Source: an uncultured Nitrososphaerota archaeon
GTDB taxonomy: Archaea > Korarchaeota > Korarchaeia > Korarchaeales > Korarchaeaceae
DNA length: 64,000 nucleotides
Direction of reading: 5' to 3'
NCBI GenBank assembly: GCA_964594835.1
Contig: CAZQNA010000001.1
Span: 96,001 to 160,000 of the forward strand
Position 1 is the stretch's first letter; every line of letters begins with the position of its first letter. Under the pieces are notes generated by a model. That model saw only the letters and a program-made list of their open reading frames with translations, ran no database searches and was not told the origin of the DNA. This document shows positions 33,784 through 41,638 of the stretch, piece after piece. The position numbers and the translations under genes are program-made.

Positions 33784-36606
33784 TTGGCAGAGCGCGGTAT
33801 GCTGACCCCCACCGAGCCCCAGGAGATGGCCATTCCTCTGATCCTGAGGGGGGAGAACGTCCTCCTGATAGCGCCCACGGGGACGGGAAAGACCGAGGCC
33901 GCCCTCCTGCCGATGCTCGCCAGGATGATGGCCGAGGGGAGGGCCGCGGGGGGAGTCAGGATGCTGTACGTCACACCCCTGAGGGCCCTGAATCGCGACC
34001 TCATGCTCAGGATATCCTGGTGGGCCTCTCGCCTCGATCTAAGCGTCGCTGTGAGGCACGGGGACACGCCCGCAATAGAGAGGAGGGCTCAGCTGGCCAG
34101 ACCTCCGGACATACTGGTCACGACGCCGGAGACGCTCCAGATACTCCTGGTGGCGAGGAGGTTCCGCCAGCACCTGGCCTCGGTTCGGTATCTCATCGTC
34201 GATGAGGTCCACGAGCTCGCGGAGAGCAAGAGGGGCGCCCAGCTCTCCCTCGCCCTCGAGAAGCTCAAGGTCATGACGGGTGAGCACCCACAGATCGCTG
34301 GCCTCTCGGCGACCGTCGGATCCCCGGAGGAGGTGGCCCGATTCCTTGGGGGCTCCTCCCCGACGCCCCGCGTGGTGTACGTGTCCGCCGCGAAGACCAT
34401 GGAGATAGGGGTCGAGTACCCACTCCCCTCGCCCGAGGACGGGGAACTCGCCGCCAGGCTCTACGTGACCCCGGACGTCGCGGCCAGGCTGAGGAGGATA
34501 AGGGAACTCATACGGGAGGCCAAGACCGCCCTCATCTTCACGAACACCAGGTCCATGACCGAGATCCTGGGCAGCAGGCTGAGGATGTGGGACGCGAGCC
34601 TCGCCATGGCGGTTCACCACGGCTCTCTCGCGGCAAGGGCGAGGGTGACGGCCGAGAGATCCCTCAGGGAGGGGAGGGTTAGGTCCCTCGTCTCCACCAG
34701 CTCCCTGGAGCTGGGCATAGACGTCGGCCACGTGGACCTGGTGGTCCAGTACATGAGCCCCAGGCAGGCCACCAGGCTCGTCCAGAGGGTGGGGAGGAGC
34801 GGCCACAGGGTAGGGGAGGTGAGCAGGGGCGTCGTGATAGTCATGACCCCCGACGACGCCCTTGAGTCCATGGTGGTCAGGCGGAGGGCCCTGGAAGACA
34901 GACTAGAGGCCGTGAAAATACCCGAAAAGCCATATGACGCCCTCCTTCACGAGATAGTGGCCCTCCTCATGTGGAAGCCCGAGTGGACCGTTCCCGAGGC
35001 CCTTGGAATTATCAGGAGGGCGTACAACTACCGGCGGCTCGGGCCCGAGGAGCTGCTGGACCTGGTCAAGTTTCTGGCCAGCCTGCCCAGGAGCCCGGTG
35101 CTCGTCTCGGAGCCCACCCGCTTCAGGAGGGGGCCGGGGTTCTCCGGCCTCTACCCATACTACTTCGAGAATCTGTCCATGATCCCCGAAATCCGAGCCT
35201 ACCTCGTCGTGGATCAGGACACTGAGGAGCCCGTGGGCACGCTGGACGAGCCCTTCGTGGCGGAGAGGGGAGAGCCTGGGTCCAAGTTCATCATGGCCGG
35301 GGAGGTCTGGAGGATCGTCCAGATCTTCAGGGACAGGGTGTACGTGGTGAGGGACCCAGATCCGGAGGGGGCGGTCCCCCACTGGCTGGGGGAGGAGATA
35401 CCGGTGCCCTGGTCGGTCTCGCAGGAGGTGGGCCTCATAAGGGGAAGGGTGGCTGAGGCGATCTCCTCTGGGCTCTCTCGGCGAGAGGTGGCCAGGTCCC
35501 TATCCAGGGACTACGGGGTGGCGGAGGACACGGTCCTGAGGGCCATCTCTCCGACCGTGGAGACCGCAGAGAGGGGGCTGTCGGTTCCCACGCACCGGAG
35601 GGTGGTCGTTGAGGCCGTGGGGAACACGGTGATCGTTCACGTTCACGCTGGGACGCTTGCCAACAGGGCCCTCGCCAGGTACCTGGCAGAGATAGCGGCC
35701 CGAGAGACTGGAGGGGCCGTCGGCGTGGCCGAGGATCCGTACCGCCTGTACCTGACCGGTCGCCTGGTGACCCCGGGATTGGTCGCGGACGGCCTGGCGT
35801 CCCCTCCCACGGACGTGGGGGAGGTCCTGAGGGCGGCGGTCGAGAGGAGCGGATACTTCAGGTTCAGGCTCCTCCAGGCCGCCAGGAAGATGGGGGTATT
35901 GTCGAGGGACGCCGAGGTCACCCCCTCGGTCCTGGACAGGCTGAAGGTCAGCTTGGAGGGCACCCCGGTGTACAGGCAGGCGGTCAGGGACGTATTGGAG
36001 AGGGACATGTCCATACCCGGGGCAGAGGAGGTGATGGGCCGCCTGGCATCCGGGGATTGGGAGCTCGTCAACCTCGGCAGGACCGCCGAGCCCACCCCCA
36101 TCTCCAGGGACGCCCTGAGGTGGATAAGGGTCAGGGTGGAGTCGATCCCCCCGGACAAGAGGCGGCTCCTCAGGAGGGAGAGGCTGAGGGTGAAGATCCT
36201 CACGGAGACCGTGACCCTTGCGTGCCTCAGCTGCCGCGGATACGTCGAGGAGGTCGAGCCCTACGAACTCCCGCAGCGTCCGGAGTGCCCCCTGTGCGGC
36301 TCCAGACTCCTGGGAGTCTCCCGAGAGCCGGATATAGCGGTTGAGCAGGCCCTCTCCCTCTCTGAGCGGGCCCTGAGGTCGAAGTCCCGCCGGAGGATGA
36401 GGAGGATCGTCTCGGAGATCAAGATGACCGCCCGCCTGGTGGAGGCCCACGGGAGGCTGGCCGTCATGGCTCTTGCGGCGGGCATCCCGCCCAGGGCCGC
36501 CGAGGATATCTTGGAGCGGTCCGGGGGGAGTGAGGCCGCCCTGATCGACGCCATACTGGAATTCACGTCTCGCCGGAGGATCCGCGGGCGCCGAGGAGCA
36601 GGCTGA
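33784..36606 (+). CDS. lhr: Lhr-family SF2 helicase with C-terminal Cys cluster (aLhr1-like)
   Basis: APTGTGKT, TTPETL, DEVH, LSAT, HHGSL, LELGID, QRVGRSGH, CLSC..CPLC; homologous sequence begins upstream of the called start. Confidence 0.93.
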   Translation: MAERGMLTPTEPQEMAIPLILRGENVLLIAPTGTGKTEAALLPMLARMMAEGRAAGGVRMLYVTPLRALNRDLMLRISWWASRLDLSVAVRHGDTPAIERRAQLARPPDILVTTPETLQILLVARRFRQHLASVRYLIVDEVHELAESKRGAQLSLALEKLKVMTGEHPQIAGLSATVGSPEEVARFLGGSSPTPRVVYVSAAKTMEIGVEYPLPSPEDGELAARLYVTPDVAARLRRIRELIREAKTALIFTNTRSMTEILGSRLRMWDASLAMAVHHGSLAARARVTAERSLREGRVRSLVSTSSLELGIDVGHVDLVVQYMSPRQATRLVQRVGRSGHRVGEVSRGVVIVMTPDDALESMVVRRRALEDRLEAVKIPEKPYDALLHEIVALLMWKPEWTVPEALGIIRRAYNYRRLGPEELLDLVKFLASLPRSPVLVSEPTRFRRGPGFSGLYPYYFENLSMIPEIRAYLVVDQDTEEPVGTLDEPFVAERGEPGSKFIMAGEVWRIVQIFRDRVYVVRDPDPEGAVPHWLGEEIPVPWSVSQEVGLIRGRVAEAISSGLSRREVARSLSRDYGVAEDTVLRAISPTVETAERGLSVPTHRRVVVEAVGNTVIVHVHAGTLANRALARYLAEIAARETGGAVGVAEDPYRLYLTGRLVTPGLVADGLASPPTDVGEVLRAAVERSGYFRFRLLQAARKMGVLSRDAEVTPSVLDRLKVSLEGTPVYRQAVRDVLERDMSIPGAEEVMGRLASGDWELVNLGRTAEPTPISRDALRWIRVRVESIPPDKRRLLRRERLRVKILTETVTLACLSCRGYVEEVEPYELPQRPECPLCGSRLLGVSREPDIAVEQALSLSERALRSKSRRRMRRIVSEIKMTARLVEAHGRLAVMALAAGIPPRAAEDILERSGGSEAALIDAILEFTSRRRIRGRRGAG

Positions 36607-37144
36607 GCAGGCGCTCCACGTCGATCTCCACCCGAGTCCTCCACCCCATCTCGACCCCCTCCTCCGTCTCGGAGAGGTAGCCGTGCCTGATCAGCCTTGT
36701 GAGAATGCCGGGGACCTTCCAGTCCGGTAGCTTCGACTTCAGGAGGTCCTCCAACTCCTCCCTGCTCGCTCGCCCGCCCTTTGCGGATATCAGGGCCACG
36801 CAGGCCGCCAGCGCGGCGAGCTCGTCTATCCTCCAGCCAGACCCCCTCACCTCCGGCCAGTCGGGGGCCTCCCGGAAGGTGACGTAGAAGGTGGCCTCAG
36901 CGAACTCCTCCTCGCCCGCGTCCCGCCCGTCCGGAGCTTTGGCGACCACCCTGAAGCCTATGTCGGAGAGTTCCTCGTCTAGGAGGCGGAGAACGGTCTT
37001 GTAGTCCCTCCCGAGGGCCCTCCTCAGCTCCCACCCCTTGACCCCCGGCTTCGCGTGGCTCCTGAGGAGCAGCATGTGGGCCGCGCGCCTGACCTTCCTG
37101 CGCAGGTCCTCGGGCCCGCCCCTCGAGTCAGCCATCCCCACCAC
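36563..37144 (-). CDS. Kite-family tandem winged-helix protein (ScpB/Nse1/Nse3-like)
   Basis: Last gene of smc-scpA operon; two wHTH-like halves; C-terminal LIRHGYL..EMGWRTRVE resembles Nse1/MAGE. Confidence 0.68.
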   Translation of the reverse strand: MVGMADSRGGPEDLRRKVRRAAHMLLLRSHAKPGVKGWELRRALGRDYKTVLRLLDEELSDIGFRVVAKAPDGRDAGEEEFAEATFYVTFREAPDWPEVRGSGWRIDELAALAACVALISAKGGRASREELEDLLKSKLPDWKVPGILTRLIRHGYLSETEEGVEMGWRTRVEIDVERLLSLLLGARGSSGET

Positions 37145-37880
37145 CGCCCACGTCGAGCCAGGTGACCACGGACCCCCTCAGGCCGCCGGAGCCCCCCGGC
37201 CTTACTATGAGGACCCTCCCGGTGGCCGGGTCTCGCCTGATCGAGGCGAATCCCTCCGAGATCAGGAAGCTCAGGACGTAGGCCCGCTCCGCCGCCTCCC
37301 ACGGGTCCCCAGCCCGGACGTACTCCAGGTAGTCGACCTCCCCGCGCTCCTCGAGCGCCTCGGCCAGCCGCCTCGCCTCCAGCTTCAGCCTGCGCTCAAA
37401 CTCCTCCCCAGCTGGGGGAGGCCCGGGGGCCCCCAGCTCGGTGGGCTTGGGCAGCCCCCGACGCCTGTCCGAGGCGGGCGGGAGCTCCATCCAGTACCTC
37501 ACGGCTGCCTCGAGGAAGGCGGGCGTGACCCCCCTGGCCTCTACTATCGGCCTCCACGCCCTTAGGAGGAGCCCGGCCAGGGCCTTAGGCTCCATGGCCT
37601 CGACCTTCAGGGCCACCAAGAGGGGGTCGACGAAGAGCCTCGATGCCCTGTGCTCGATCCACTCCTCCTGCCTCTCGACGACTCGGGACAGCCCGACCAG
37701 GGCCTCCAGGTCGAGGTTGATCTCGTCCCAGCTCCTGAGACGGGGGAACTCCTCCCTCAGCCTCGAGGCCAGCCTCACCACGTTCACGTCGAAGGGGTCC
37801 ACCCTGCCGGAGAGGGCCTCCCTGACAAGCTCCAGGATCCTCTCGAAGAGCTCCCTCCTGGCCCTGCCCGATCGGCTCAC
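37128..37880 (-). CDS. scpA: Kleisin (ScpA-like)
   Basis: N-terminal VDPFDVNV motif; C-terminal wHTH AERAYVLSFLISEG..I; overlaps smc stop. Confidence 0.78.
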   Translation of the reverse strand: MSRSGRARRELFERILELVREALSGRVDPFDVNVVRLASRLREEFPRLRSWDEINLDLEALVGLSRVVERQEEWIEHRASRLFVDPLLVALKVEAMEPKALAGLLLRAWRPIVEARGVTPAFLEAAVRYWMELPPASDRRRGLPKPTELGAPGPPPAGEEFERRLKLEARRLAEALEERGEVDYLEYVRAGDPWEAAERAYVLSFLISEGFASIRRDPATGRVLIVRPGGSGGLRGSVVTWLDVGGGGDG

Positions 37881-39601
37881 GCGCTCACCACCCTCGAGAT
37901 CTCCCCGACCCTCTGGACGAACACCAGGTGGACGGGGCCCTCCACCCTGGGGGGCGGGCCCGGCGTCACCAGGATGCTCTGCCCTCCGGACCTCGCCAGG
38001 ACCCTGGCGAACTCCCTGAGCGCAACCTCCCTCCTCTCCGGGTCCATGTGGACGTCGAACTCGTCTATGACCCTTATTGGGGACCTGACGTGCCTCTGGA
38101 GGCTGAGCATGAAGGCCACAACGGTGGTCGCCCTCTCCCCCCCGCTCAGGGCCCTCGACTCCAGGGGGACCGGGTCCATGCCTCGGAAGCCGGCGGCCAC
38201 CTCGAGCCCCGCCGTCTCAACGTCGTCTCCGTCCACGAGCTTGACGTAGCCGACCCCGCCCAGCCTACCCAGTATCTCCGCGAACTCCCGGTCGACTTCG
38301 GAGATGAGCCCCCTCACCTCGCGCCTCCAGAACTCGGCCCTCTCGCTCAGGGCCTCCAGTAGCCCCCTCCTGTTCTCCTCCAGCCTATTCAGCCTCTCGC
38401 GTATCTCCCTATAGGTCTCCAGGTAGCGGTGGTACATCCTCTCAACGTCCTCCGAGACGTCCCCAAGGGACGCCAGCCGGGCCCCCACAAGCTTGAGCTC
38501 GTCGGCCACCTGCTCCGGATCCCTGAGCCTGCCTGCCGGCCGCTCGAGGTGCTTGGCCTCCCCCTCAAGGGCCGCGAGCTCCGACTCGGCCTTCCTGAGC
38601 CTGGCCCTCAGGCGGGATGCCCTCGCCCTGAGGTCCCTGAGGCGGTATTCCAGGACAGCCCTCTGGACGGCCGATTCGACTATCCGCCCGTGGAGATCGA
38701 GGACCCTCCGCCAGAGTTCTCCCCAACCCCCTTCGACATCCCGGGAGCCCAGCTGGAGGAACTCCCGCTCGAGCCCCTCGAGGGTCTCGCTCAGCTCGGC
38801 GATCTCAGCCTCCACGCCCTCTGACTCCCTCTGGACGGAGTCCAGCTCATCCTCAAGCTGGGAGACCAGCTCCCTCTGACGCTCGTATCGAGCCCACGCG
38901 AGCTCCGCCCTGAGCCTCCTCGCCCTGTCCTCCAGACGCCTCTTCTCCAGGAGCCTATCGTACTTCTCCTTCCACACGCTCAGGGTCTCTTCCGCCCTCC
39001 TCAATAGGTCCTGCGTCTTGGAGACCTCTTCCTCGACGCCGCTGAGCTCTCTCATTGCCTGGAGAACTCTCTTCCTGTACTCGTGCAGCCCGGCCGCCTC
39101 CTCGACCATGACGAGCCTCTCTTCCGGCCCCATGGCGATGAACTCGGACATGGTGCCCTGGTGCATGATCACAAGCATGTTGTCGGGGTCCACGCCCATC
39201 CTCGCCAGCCGGCTGGTCAGCTCGTACTTGTCAACGGTCCTGTAGTTCAGCTCGAACCAGTAGGTGCCGTCGGCCCTGATGTACCTGGACACCCGCACCT
39301 CGTCCTCCCTGAATCCCGGCACGGGGCGCCTCCCGTCGACCGGCCTGTTGTCGAACACCACGGTGACCCTGGCGAGGTTGCTGCCCCTCCTGATCAGGTC
39401 CCTCAGCCTCCTGGACCTCTCGGTCCTCGTCTGGCCGAGGGCGATCGCTATCGCGAGCACGATCGAGGACTTGCCGGCGCCGTTGGGCCCGGCGATCAGG
39501 TTCAGTCCCGGGGCAAACGGTATCCTCGAGTACTCGTGCGACATGAAGTTCTCAAGCACGACCTCCCTGATGTAGGTCCCCCTCGGTCCCCCCTGATCCA
39601 C
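37877..39601 (-). CDS. smc: Short SMC-family ATPase, SMC5/6-related, 574 aa
   Basis: LENFMSH, GPNGAGKS, Q-loop MHQG, long coiled coil, LSGGER, IDEFDVHMD, QSILVTP; GTG start 39601. Confidence 0.9.
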   Translation of the reverse strand: MDQGGPRGTYIREVVLENFMSHEYSRIPFAPGLNLIAGPNGAGKSSIVLAIAIALGQTRTERSRRLRDLIRRGSNLARVTVVFDNRPVDGRRPVPGFREDEVRVSRYIRADGTYWFELNYRTVDKYELTSRLARMGVDPDNMLVIMHQGTMSEFIAMGPEERLVMVEEAAGLHEYRKRVLQAMRELSGVEEEVSKTQDLLRRAEETLSVWKEKYDRLLEKRRLEDRARRLRAELAWARYERQRELVSQLEDELDSVQRESEGVEAEIAELSETLEGLEREFLQLGSRDVEGGWGELWRRVLDLHGRIVESAVQRAVLEYRLRDLRARASRLRARLRKAESELAALEGEAKHLERPAGRLRDPEQVADELKLVGARLASLGDVSEDVERMYHRYLETYREIRERLNRLEENRRGLLEALSERAEFWRREVRGLISEVDREFAEILGRLGGVGYVKLVDGDDVETAGLEVAAGFRGMDPVPLESRALSGGERATTVVAFMLSLQRHVRSPIRVIDEFDVHMDPERREVALREFARVLARSGGQSILVTPGPPPRVEGPVHLVFVQRVGEISRVVSA

Positions 39602-39665: not shown

Positions 39666-40361
39666 ATGGCGCTGGTGGGTAAGGTCTTCAGGGTGGACGC
39701 GGACGTCACCCCCGAGCTGGCCGCAGAGAAGCTCAGGGGGTGGAAGGCAGAGAGGACCATAGCGCGGGGAGACGCAGAGCTCACGCTGAGGATCCAGTCC
39801 GAAGTCACCTCCGTCAGGGAGGGGGAGGTCTGGGGAGAGCTGTACGAGGAGTACCCGGTGCCTCTGTTCGGGAGGGAGGGCGTGAGATACGAGATATCTG
39901 CCCGCGTAATCCCCTTCGTGTTCTTCTGGACCGAGAAGGGGGTTCTCCTGCTGATCCTGGCCAAGAGGCCCAAGGCGAACGCGGCGGCGTCTCTCCTCTC
40001 CAACGCCCTGCTGCTAGGGAGCGGCGGGATGGTCGAGGCCAGGATATCGCACGAGACCCTGAGGAGACTGCACGAGTCGAACCCGGAGGCCACGAAGGTG
40101 GTCTACTTCGACCAGGTGGACCTGCCCAACATAAGGAAGCTCTCCCTGTTCGGGGAGGCGCTCGCGGACACCAACCTCTACCAGGAGTACCTGAGGCACG
40201 GGAAGATATGGTACGTGGTGTTCGAGGACAGGGAGTGGGGCCTCACGGTGGGCGTGACCAGGAACTGCGTGGTGACCGTCTTCACGGCAACCGAGGTTGA
40301 GAATTTCGTGAGGTACGTCCTGGAGAGGATAGTCCCCCTTATGGAGACCCCTCATGAGTGA
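39666..40361 (+). CDS. Conserved hypothetical alpha/beta protein divergent from smc
   Basis: Native-looking codon usage and globular composition; no motif recognised. Confidence 0.75.
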   Translation: MALVGKVFRVDADVTPELAAEKLRGWKAERTIARGDAELTLRIQSEVTSVREGEVWGELYEEYPVPLFGREGVRYEISARVIPFVFFWTEKGVLLLILAKRPKANAAASLLSNALLLGSGGMVEARISHETLRRLHESNPEATKVVYFDQVDLPNIRKLSLFGEALADTNLYQEYLRHGKIWYVVFEDREWGLTVGVTRNCVVTVFTATEVENFVRYVLERIVPLMETPHE

Positions 40362-41638
40362 AACTTAATCCATTGGCGGGGTGGCGGGAGGAGATGCCTG
40401 CGGTGAAGATTGCGGACATCCTGGAGGGGAGGGTCGAGAGGGGGACAGAGGCTCAGATCGAGGGCAAGATAGTTGAGGTCCTACCGACGGCCAAGCTCGG
40501 AGAGGAGACCTACGAGAGGCTCATACTGGACGACGGGACGGGGAGGCTCACCATAGTCGTGAGGGTGACACCGTACTACTTCTTCCCCGGAGACGTGCTC
40601 CGGGTCAGGGGAACCGTCAAGCCCTGCTTCTACATGACGAAGATGACCTGCCTGGAGACCACCGCCGAAGACCTGGAGTTCGTGAGCGAGTACAGGGTTC
40701 CGCTGGCCAGGCGCGAGTCCATGAGCACCATGGGGCCCTTCAAGCTCATGGCCCTGCTCGCGTTCACCAGGCTGGACGATTACCTGATAGACGTCATCCT
40801 GGACACGGAGCTGGATCCCCTTAAGATAGCCGAGGAGGCCGAGAGGTCAGAGAGGCTGGACTGCCTCATCGAGCTCCTTGGCGGGATGACCCTCTACAGC
40901 GTCTTCATCAAGAGCGTCGAGGCCGCAAAAATTACGGAGACGGCCATTCTGCTGGTCAAGCCGAAGGTGGGGGACCCCAGGCTCCTAGGGAAGCTCGAAC
41001 TCATGGAGTCCTTTCTCAGGGCCATGCTGGAGGACCAGGGGTTCAGGCACGTCATAGAGCCCGTCCCAGTCCCGCCCGTCGAGGAGGTCGAGCCCAGGCT
41101 GAGCCCAGAGGAGATGGAGGCGATCAGGCCGCTGGCCGAGGGGGCCAGCGAGGTGGTCAAGGACCTCATCCACGCAGAGGGTCCCCACATAGTGGTCGTG
41201 GACCTCCCCGACGAGGATCCCATGGAGGGCAGGCGCCTCGCCAAGCTGATAGCCTCCATGGCTAAGGCCAGGCTCCTCCTCGTGAGCGTTCACGCGATGA
41301 GGAACAACATGGACGGGGTGATATCTGAGCTGAGGGCCTTGGCAGGCTCTCTCAAGGGTCCAGCCGTGGTTTACCTGGAGGGGATCGAGTTCATGCTCCC
41401 GACCTACCTGTTGAAGTCCGCCATGAGTTCTGAGATGGCCTCTTCGTTCGACGCCTTCACGTCCGAGGTGATCCAGATGCTCGAGAGGCTATCCTCCAGG
41501 CCCGAGGTCCTAGTCTTGGCCGGGACGATATCTCCGGCCATGGTCTCCTCGAGGCTCCTGTCCGTCGCTAGGAAGAAGCTCGCCATGAAGGCGGAGGAGT
41601 CAGAGGAGGAGTCGGAGATGCCCCCCTACATGGGTTGA
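40358..41638 (+). CDS. OB-fold protein fused to an inactivated AAA+-like domain
   Basis: N-terminal GKIVEV..LILDDGTG..GDVLRVRG OB-fold; C-terminal LAKLIAS..PAVVYLEGIE..VLVLAGT AAA scaffold with no GKT. Confidence 0.68.
   Translation: MKLNPLAGWREEMPAVKIADILEGRVERGTEAQIEGKIVEVLPTAKLGEETYERLILDDGTGRLTIVVRVTPYYFFPGDVLRVRGTVKPCFYMTKMTCLETTAEDLEFVSEYRVPLARRESMSTMGPFKLMALLAFTRLDDYLIDVILDTELDPLKIAEEAERSERLDCLIELLGGMTLYSVFIKSVEAAKITETAILLVKPKVGDPRLLGKLELMESFLRAMLEDQGFRHVIEPVPVPPVEEVEPRLSPEEMEAIRPLAEGASEVVKDLIHAEGPHIVVVDLPDEDPMEGRRLAKLIASMAKARLLLVSVHAMRNNMDGVISELRALAGSLKGPAVVYLEGIEFMLPTYLLKSAMSSEMASSFDAFTSEVIQMLERLSSRPEVLVLAGTISPAMVSSRLLSVARKKLAMKAEESEEESEMPPYMG

Follow-up and report, generated by a model that had tools for sequence, protein, structure and literature searches.

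A short-armed, hinge-less SMC5/6-related ATPase encoded in an operon with predicted kleisin and kite partners in a korarchaeal genome

The name 'SMC5/6-related aSMC' was given by Yoshinaga and Inagaki in 2021 to a group of archaeal SMC (structural maintenance of chromosomes) proteins, for which their main text counts 80 homologues, 66 of them from TACK archaea (PMC8665677). The main text of a preprint by van Hooff et al. describes Nse4-related kleisins and Nse1/3-like kites in TACK and Asgard archaea, where each of two complexes has a three-gene operon to itself (bioRxiv 10.1101/2024.01.07.573240). The ATPases are treated in these main texts as ordinary hinge-dimerising SMCs. Here we describe an operon of this kind in which the ATPase has no hinge. 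It occupies positions 36563-39601 of a 64,000-nucleotide stretch of DNA, referred to throughout as the window, from an uncultured korarchaeal archaeon (GenBank assembly GCA_964594835.1, contig CAZQNA010000001.1, positions 96,001 to 160,000 of the forward strand). The three genes probably specify a homodimeric archaeal SMC5/6-related complex with its arms closed by a distal seam, likely to act as an ATP-gated DNA clamp.

The locus almost certainly belongs to the archaeal family already published, with which it shares, as far as the main texts describe it, the grouping with SMC5 and SMC6, a range of TACK/Thermoproteota and some Hadarchaeota, an operon that combines an Nse4-related kleisin with an Nse1/3-like kite, and the presence of another operon, of condensin type, in the genome. 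The original prediction had taken the type of system to be newer than it is, since both the SMC5/6-related SMCs and the SMC-kleisin-kite operons of archaea are already in PMC8665677 and bioRxiv 10.1101/2024.01.07.573240. What appears to be new is the short-armed, hinge-less architecture with its putative closure by a helical bundle; the gene family and operon type were known. Word searches of the main texts of PMC8665677, 10.1101/2024.01.07.573240 and PMC9389158 brought up no mention of hinge loss or shortness, and the first two are also silent on protein length (their supplements may list lengths); a literature search limited to main texts turned up no report of archaeal SMC5/6-type proteins without a hinge.

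All three genes lie on the minus strand. The first encodes the SMC5/6-related ATPase (37877..39601; 574 amino acids (aa), GTG start), the second the Nse4-like kleisin (37128..37880; 250 aa) and the third the Nse1/Nse3(MAGE)-like kite, modelled as two winged-helix domains (36563..37144; 193 aa). The ATPase and kleisin genes overlap by 4 nt and the kleisin and kite genes by 17 nt, or by 8 nt if the kite starts at ATG (Met4). The overlapping arrangement read from the letters is thus present in the open reading frames (ORFs), and the three-gene operon is real; with 2197 database relatives of the ATPase and a conserved operon it is far beyond chance. The gene-neighbourhood survey that had been proposed as a check drew on 307 relatives in contigs from one genome per species, among which 80 loci were examined. 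The operon is conserved over many archaeal lineages: a kleisin orthologue lies 3' of the ATPase gene on the same strand in 76 of the 80 loci and a kite orthologue is found in 72, the loci without one or the other being mostly at contig ends.

The ATPase head, split into N- and C-terminal halves, retains intact Walker A, signature and Walker B motifs, and each motif quoted in the original prediction is found at its place in the 574-aa protein. LENFMSH occupies residues 16-22. The Walker A motif GPNGAGKS (residues 38-45; 39467..39490, minus strand, as for all coordinates within this gene) is invariant in a 40-sequence family alignment, and the ATP-binding cassette (ABC) signature LSGGER (residues 485-490; 38132..38149), recognised by its motif and in the same alignment, is intact, as is the Walker B and D-loop segment DEFDVHMD (residues 513-520; 38042..38065). 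The H-loop equivalent is QSILVTP (residues 541-547; 37961..37981), with Pro where canonical SMCs have His. A MAFFT alignment with SMC5 (P0128, P0131), SMC6 (P0127) and canonical SMCs places P547 opposite the His of canonical VVTH/VVSH and in register with the Pro of SMC5 (..LITPK) and SMC6 (..FITPH), and pairs DEFDVHMD with the SMC6 sequence DEFDVFMD. Also shared by the ATPase and SMC5/SMC6 are an N-terminal xNFM in place of the canonical xGFKSF, and (I/L/V)TP at the position of the canonical (V/I)(T/S)H or SL. Within the 40-member family, T546 and P547 do not vary. The features common to the archaeal protein and the eukaryotic SMC5/6 core are therefore xNFM, DEFDVxMD and a TP that replaces the H-loop His, and the earlier recognition of SMC5/6-type motifs, with Pro for the H-loop His, holds.

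Profile searches lead the same way. Pfam SMC_N matches the ATPase with E 1.9e-29, while among the NCBIfam models TIGR02169 (SMC_prok_A) ranks first with 231 bits, far under its full-length cut-off of 729. Compared with the PDB as a single sequence, the ATPase matches the Pyrococcus Smc head (125 bits) ahead of yeast Smc5 (102) and Smc6 (94). The 40-member family profile reverses this ranking, with Smc5 at 207 bits and Smc6 at 200/193 above Pyrococcus Smc (169), Smc2 (152), Smc3 (135) and Rad50 (60). The best non-family matches in a representative library of 1.84 billion proteins are mostly of the SMC5/SMC6 motif type, and a TP-type H-loop is present in 34 of the 52 long proteins among the matches listed. 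The head is a complete ABC/SMC ATPase with SMC5/6 signature residues.

In SMC motors the hinge is regarded as defining and as important to the mechanism, with parts to play in dimerisation, in the entry or gating of DNA and in folding the arms. It is absent from this ATPase. An AlphaFold2 model built from the 40-row alignment (mean predicted local distance difference test score, pLDDT, 88.9) divides the protein into an N-terminal head (1-172), an ascending helix (173-286), a hairpin (287-292), a descending helix (293-446), broken at 351-361 and at 380-384 (the joint), and a C-terminal head (447-574). The non-helical six-residue hairpin (38726..38743) stands at the usual site of the hinge, and LGSRDVEGGWG, at residues 284-294, spans the turn. 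The arm is predicted to be a plain helical hairpin of ~114 residues, ~17 nm, with neck and joint kept and no hinge fold; the antiparallel intramolecular coiled coil of SMCs in the strict sense is present, though short, and their globular dimerising hinge is missing. Eukaryotic Smc5 and Smc6 are, in contrast, hinge-bearing proteins of ~1050-1130 aa. Pfam finds no PF06470 hinge domain in the ATPase. A custom hidden Markov model (HMM) built from four hinges of SMC5/6-related archaeal proteins also found nothing (E 0.72), yet it detects the hinges of SMC5, SMC6, a canonical SMC and the archaeal relative P0413. There are no cysteines, which excludes a zinc hook. The reading of the sequence as having no GX6GX3GG hinge or CxxC hook, and a turn near LGSRDVEGGWG, is therefore sustained. 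The closest fold is 5xei, a P. yayanosii construct that comprises the Smc head, its coiled coil and the joint (E 9e-25, TM 0.61/0.67). It has the same layout of head, neck and joint, and Smc-ScpAB has the same kleisin and kite architecture, but 5xei was engineered whereas the archaeal protein is natural.

The short arm is a property of a family. The best 120 of the 2197 relatives from a near-length database search are 552-679 aa long, and none has PF06470. An exhaustive search of representatives at >=500 bits returned 57 proteins, of which 53 are 477-685 aa and the other four 982-1047 aa. A truncated or decayed SMC can be rejected, the same length class being found in the 120 best relatives, in 53 of the 57 representatives and in the 80 loci (ORFs of 534-678 aa). 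Conservation in the family alignment is concentrated in the head, neck and joint; its centre is unconserved and variable in length, the longer members having extra coiled coil. A search of longer proteins produced one close relative, P0124 (1040 aa, 421 bits), with the next at <=134 bits, so that the only high score in the search for long hinge-bearing close relatives belongs to a protein that carries CxxC, not a hinge. P0124, with P0374, P0377, P0386 and P0419, forms a sub-clade of ~1000 aa total length nested deep in the short family (100/100), and its members have a conserved C-x-x-C-G-S...Q-W exactly at the midpoint. Judged by its sequence and position, this CxxC is a candidate for a Rad50/ClsN-like zinc hook in a protein of SMC5/6 type.

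The position of the family was examined in a careful maximum-likelihood search (IQ-TREE; 52 heads, 326 columns) rooted on the Rad50 of the same genome. SMC5 and SMC6 rows were added beforehand, P0130 and P0478 were left out, and the SMC5/SMC6 rows were labelled by motif alone except for P0127, P0131 and P0132. A clade with 99/95 support unites the short family and its long members with SMC5, SMC6 and a family of ~1120 aa named for Thorarchaeota/Promethearchaeota. Outside it fall canonical bacterial and archaeal SMCs, the genome's own canonical SMC and one eukaryotic SMC of condensin/cohesin type. Within it the Thorarchaeota-type family, which carries the Pfam hinge, branches first, and P0439 (835 aa; Pfam hinge, 4.6e-11) second. 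The remainder, itself a clade with 99/95 support, splits into SMC5 plus SMC6 (97/91) together with P0425 on one side and the short family (98/96) on the other. P0413 (982 aa), basal in the short family, keeps a hinge-like domain (3e-14 with the custom HMM). P0413, P0425 and P0439 (835-982 aa) all lie near the base of the combined clade, and since P0439 and P0413 have hinge-like domains they bracket the point at which the hinge was lost. With hinge-bearing relatives branching below the short family, the hinge is ancestral and was secondarily lost. A first, quick tree agreed in topology at lower support, and its lone SMC6 drew a long-branch warning. On these head sequences the short family is the sister group of eukaryotic SMC5 and SMC6, and its placement with them, rather than with Rad50 or canonical Smc, agrees with the profile ranking against the PDB and with what had been proposed.

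Other hinge-less relatives of the superfamily were considered and rejected. Rad50 and the ASRP group (ClsN, Sph) and arcadin-4 share with the ATPase an SMC-superfamily head and a coiled-coil hairpin without an SMC hinge, and ASRP proteins are of similar length. Rad50 models reach at most 98 bits against cut-offs of 700-1000, and Rad50 has a CxxC zinc hook and Mre11, whereas this protein has zero Cys, a kleisin and a kite, and the same genome has a separate Rad50. NF045487, for ASRP/ClsN, gives 90.2 bits against a cut-off of 300, with zero Cys again arguing against a zinc hook, and arcadin-4 gives 50 bits against 860. The tree is against all three.

The kleisin was recognised through its family. 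Searched against the PDB, a profile built from 43 orthologues finds human EID3/NSMCE4B (9.8e-7) and yeast Nse4 (2.3e-5), with the C-terminal winged helix as the matching region, and Pfam Nse4_C matches 34 of the 43 members. ScpA follows at 0.92, so that an ScpA-type kleisin is rejected. The original prediction was right in calling the second gene a kleisin and wrong in calling it ScpA-like; by its profile it is Nse4-like. The third gene product, by its modelled fold, is a tandem winged-helix kite. Its AlphaFold2 model (pLDDT 89.4) finds as its top Foldseek matches Nse1-Nse3-Nse4 complex chains, MAGE-G1/NSE1 and MAGEA4 (E 4e-5 to 9e-4), with ScpB, JetB and MukE ranked after them, in keeping with the Nse1/Nse3-like character suggested earlier for this winged-helix partner. 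Pfam MAGE matches weakly, with E 0.043 in the window protein and hits in 12 of 45 family members. In Smc-ScpAB, by comparison, the kleisin is of the type that scored 0.92 here, ScpB falls below Nse1/3/MAGE in fold, and the canonical SMCs belong to another clade.

The composition of the eukaryotic complex (Smc5-Smc6-Nse4-Nse1-Nse3) is thus echoed in a kleisin with an Nse4_C-like winged helix and a kite of MAGE/Nse1-like fold, but in a simpler form. Smc5/Smc6 and Nse1/Nse3 are heterodimers; one ATPase gene and one kite gene imply homodimers here. Nse1 has a RING, whereas the 193 modelled residues of the archaeal kite hold two winged-helix domains only and so leave it without one. The operon encodes neither Nse2 nor Nse5/6 (no genome-wide search for them was made). 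At the level of genes and folds the kleisin and kite partners of SMCs in the strict sense are present, as predicted binding partners of the ATPase.

How might a homodimer hold together without a hinge? Two copies of the arm (residues 173-446), modelled with the family alignment, gave ipSAE values of 0.60, 0.60 and 0.61 against 0.35 for the best control, with a partner pLDDT of 83 and agreement between runs in at least 93% of contacts. The score mark for a dimer is attained by 20 of 30 proteins whose solved form is a same-chain pair, compared with 1 of 23 whose solved form is a single chain; these counts apply only approximately here because our own alignment was supplied. The prediction supports binding without showing it. 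The predicted seam lies on the distal part of the descending helix (residues 293-323; 38633..38725) and involves W293, W297, V300, H304, I307, V308, A311, V312, A315, V316, Y319, R320 and D323. The contacts are symmetric (308-308, 304-304, 312-312, 316-316 and others), which would have the arms parallel and joined through their distal descending helices. Positions 307, 308, 312, 315, 316 and 319 are hydrophobic in 32-40 of the 40 family rows and so form a second seam on the helix, as expected of a four-helix bundle.

The complex would then consist of two short-armed, hinge-less SMC ATPases, a single Nse4-like kleisin and two copies of the Nse1/Nse3-like kite, paired as a dimer. ATP would be sandwiched between the two heads, the kleisin would contact one neck with its N-terminus and the other cap with its Nse4_C-like winged helix, and the kites, seated on the kleisin, would help to hold DNA. 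The arms would run parallel, their distal ends zipped together in a four-helix bundle formed from the conserved second seam of the descending helices, and this bundle would take over the role of the hinge in keeping the dimer closed. The lumen of such a complex is so small that a clamp or topological binder is most likely, rather than a long-range folder of chromosomes. It may act as an ATP-gated clamp at damaged or stalled DNA, possibly with the neighbouring helicase.

That helicase is encoded on the plus strand at 33784..36606. The Pfam domains of its 940 aa (DEAD, Helicase_C, WH_Lhr and DEAD_assoc) mark it as an Lhr. The convergent overlap described in the original prediction is present, with the 3' end of the helicase gene covering 44 nt of the kite gene. 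Of 65 loci that could be evaluated, 40 have an Lhr homologue downstream; it is convergent in 37 and adjacent or overlapping in 23, and the last group spans Korarchaeia-type, Thermofilales, Methanomethylicia and Hadarchaeota records. Lhr is a conserved neighbour of the operon, for which we do not claim the status of a subunit, and the literature search found nothing linking Lhr to archaeal SMC5/6-type proteins. On the other side, 64 bp upstream of the ATPase gene and divergent from it, is a gene for a 231-aa protein (39666..40361, plus strand). It has a homologue upstream in 43 of 71 evaluable loci from several archaeal classes, adjacent and divergent in 21. Pfam, PDB profiles and PADLOC gave no match to it, and in a protein atlas it falls in unnamed clusters, the nearest named one being an RdgC cluster at 0.79, a lead only. 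It is possibly an extra subunit or a regulator. The 426-aa ORF that follows (40358-41638, plus strand), also without a Pfam or PADLOC match, is conserved in only the 4 closest of the 80 loci.

Several points weigh against a distally zipped clamp of SMC5/6 type. The dimer is predicted from isolated arms alone, models of this kind readily place coiled coils side by side and so yield easy false positives, and one dimer control scored as high as 0.35. Family members differ at the tip in both length and sequence, with conservation beginning only at about residue 307, which argues against a specific interface at the tip. The kleisin assignment of the window protein (P0002), which on its own has no Pfam match and is not among the 34 Nse4_C hits, depends on the family profile; that of the kite depends on its fold, since the kite family profile found no kite in the PDB by sequence, only a spurious match to LytH. 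The tree contains a single SMC1-4 row from eukaryotes, and the composition of the window ATPase row deviates from that of the alignment. The pairing with Lhr is absent from Nitrososphaeria-type loci and may be inherited synteny. The family is patchily distributed and thus dispensable, and this suits a role in defence or as an accessory no less than one in repair. Support for every member of the family is computational.

The first of these points bear on an alternative in which the arms stay unpaired. Only the ATP-engaged heads, together with the kleisin and the paired kites, would hold the dimer, in the manner of RecF or of Rad50 without its hook, and the arms would do no more than provide a neck and a joint as a platform for the kleisin. 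An unconserved, length-variable tip, conservation focused on head, neck and joint, and the control at 0.35 speak for such a head-only clamp. We nevertheless regard it as unlikely. The arm-dimer prediction stands above the mark (0.60 against 0.35), and its contact positions coincide with the second family-conserved hydrophobic seam, a feature not expected of a two-helix coiled coil that has no partner.

A role in defence, as an anti-plasmid or anti-virus SMC, would make the complex a counterpart of Wadjet (JetABCD), Lamassu or the silencing of episomes by human SMC5/6, the small ring sensing small circular or foreign DNA while an unlinked or neighbouring effector acts upon it. SMC5/6 and Wadjet do restrict extrachromosomal DNA, as set out in the available text of PMC10586767, and the operon is flanked by two conserved neighbours, one a helicase and the other without an assigned function. 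The distribution is also suggestive: within the window's own phylum the family is in 16 of 32 genomes, and in 3 of 17 within one genus. Many near-complete genomes from the window's own taxonomic family lack it, single-contig ones included (genomes G009-G028), a pattern that indicates frequent loss. Wadjet and MukBEF likewise combine an SMC with a kleisin and a kite, and JetB and MukE are among the weaker fold matches of the kite, but they have long arms and hinges whereas the heads here are of SMC5/6 type. There is no nuclease (JetD-type or other) or other effector gene in the operon and no match to the JetA or JetB models. PADLOC returned only generic head matches to the ATPase (mad3 119, LmuB 78 and JetC 60 bits, the last from the coiled coil), below the SMC scores, and was blank for the kleisin, the kite and the two upstream proteins. 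The flanks are of a housekeeping kind (a MoCF-type protein, glutamate dehydrogenase and a hydrolase of the MBL class), the synteny with Lhr is held across classes, unlike that of a mobile defence island, and the GC content is not anomalous. A dedicated defence system is accordingly improbable.

That the operon, with its full SMC-kleisin-kite set and intact ATPase, is a shortened form of the main chromosome-folding, loop-extruding condensin is hardly credible, given that half of the related genomes lack the family, that it groups with SMC5/6 and not with condensin-type SMCs, and that a separate canonical operon is present in the same genome. The latter (contig C5:47706-51157) comprises a hinge-bearing SMC of canonical type, a kleisin-like ORF of 192 aa with weak matches to Rad21/ScpA kleisin C-termini, and an ScpB of 154 aa; the ScpA Pfam model itself finds nothing across the genome. 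The canonical SMC is the only PF06470 match in the genome (70.9 bits). At ~780 aa it is also short, so that both SMC complexes of the organism have shortened arms. Its other SMC_N genes, beyond this SMC, are small ABC-like ORFs and Rad50 (contig C4:89886-93778, minus strand), which has 901 aa and the hook motif CPLCG. A 399-aa ORF adjoining Rad50 is presumably Mre11.

The hinge-less clamp closed by its distal seam thus seems the best account of the three genes. As to what it does, repair, clamping and defence are all matters that we infer from the features above, and a minimal ATP-gated clamp in genome maintenance, perhaps working with Lhr, is most likely. A wider reading is possible, though we lean slightly against it as a whole. 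According to this, an entire clade of TACK archaea and Hadarchaeota (more than 2000 proteins), sister to SMC5 and SMC6, shed the hinge and two-thirds of the arm, kept the kleisin and the kite, and closes its dimer by a 'pseudo-hinge' four-helix bundle; one sub-clade regrew 1000-aa arms with a Rad50-like CxxC hook, and the complex serves as a minimal repair clamp with Lhr and the 231-aa protein. The record titles of the relatives place them in Korarchaeia-type Thermoproteota, Thermofilales, Methanomethylicia, Bathyarchaeia, Nitrososphaeria and Hadarchaeota.

As the closest prokaryotic relative of SMC5/6, the family bears on the nature of the pre-eukaryotic SMC5/6 ancestor. The hinge-bearing relatives that branch below it imply that this ancestor had a hinge, which the short clade lost. 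The conserved pairing with Lhr is a testable lead to a function in repair. A large, conserved, hinge-less family that retains head, neck, joint, kleisin and kite is also a ready minimal system for structural and single-molecule work and, if the reading given here is true, this natural 'mini-SMC' would reveal which functions of SMC proteins survive without a hinge.

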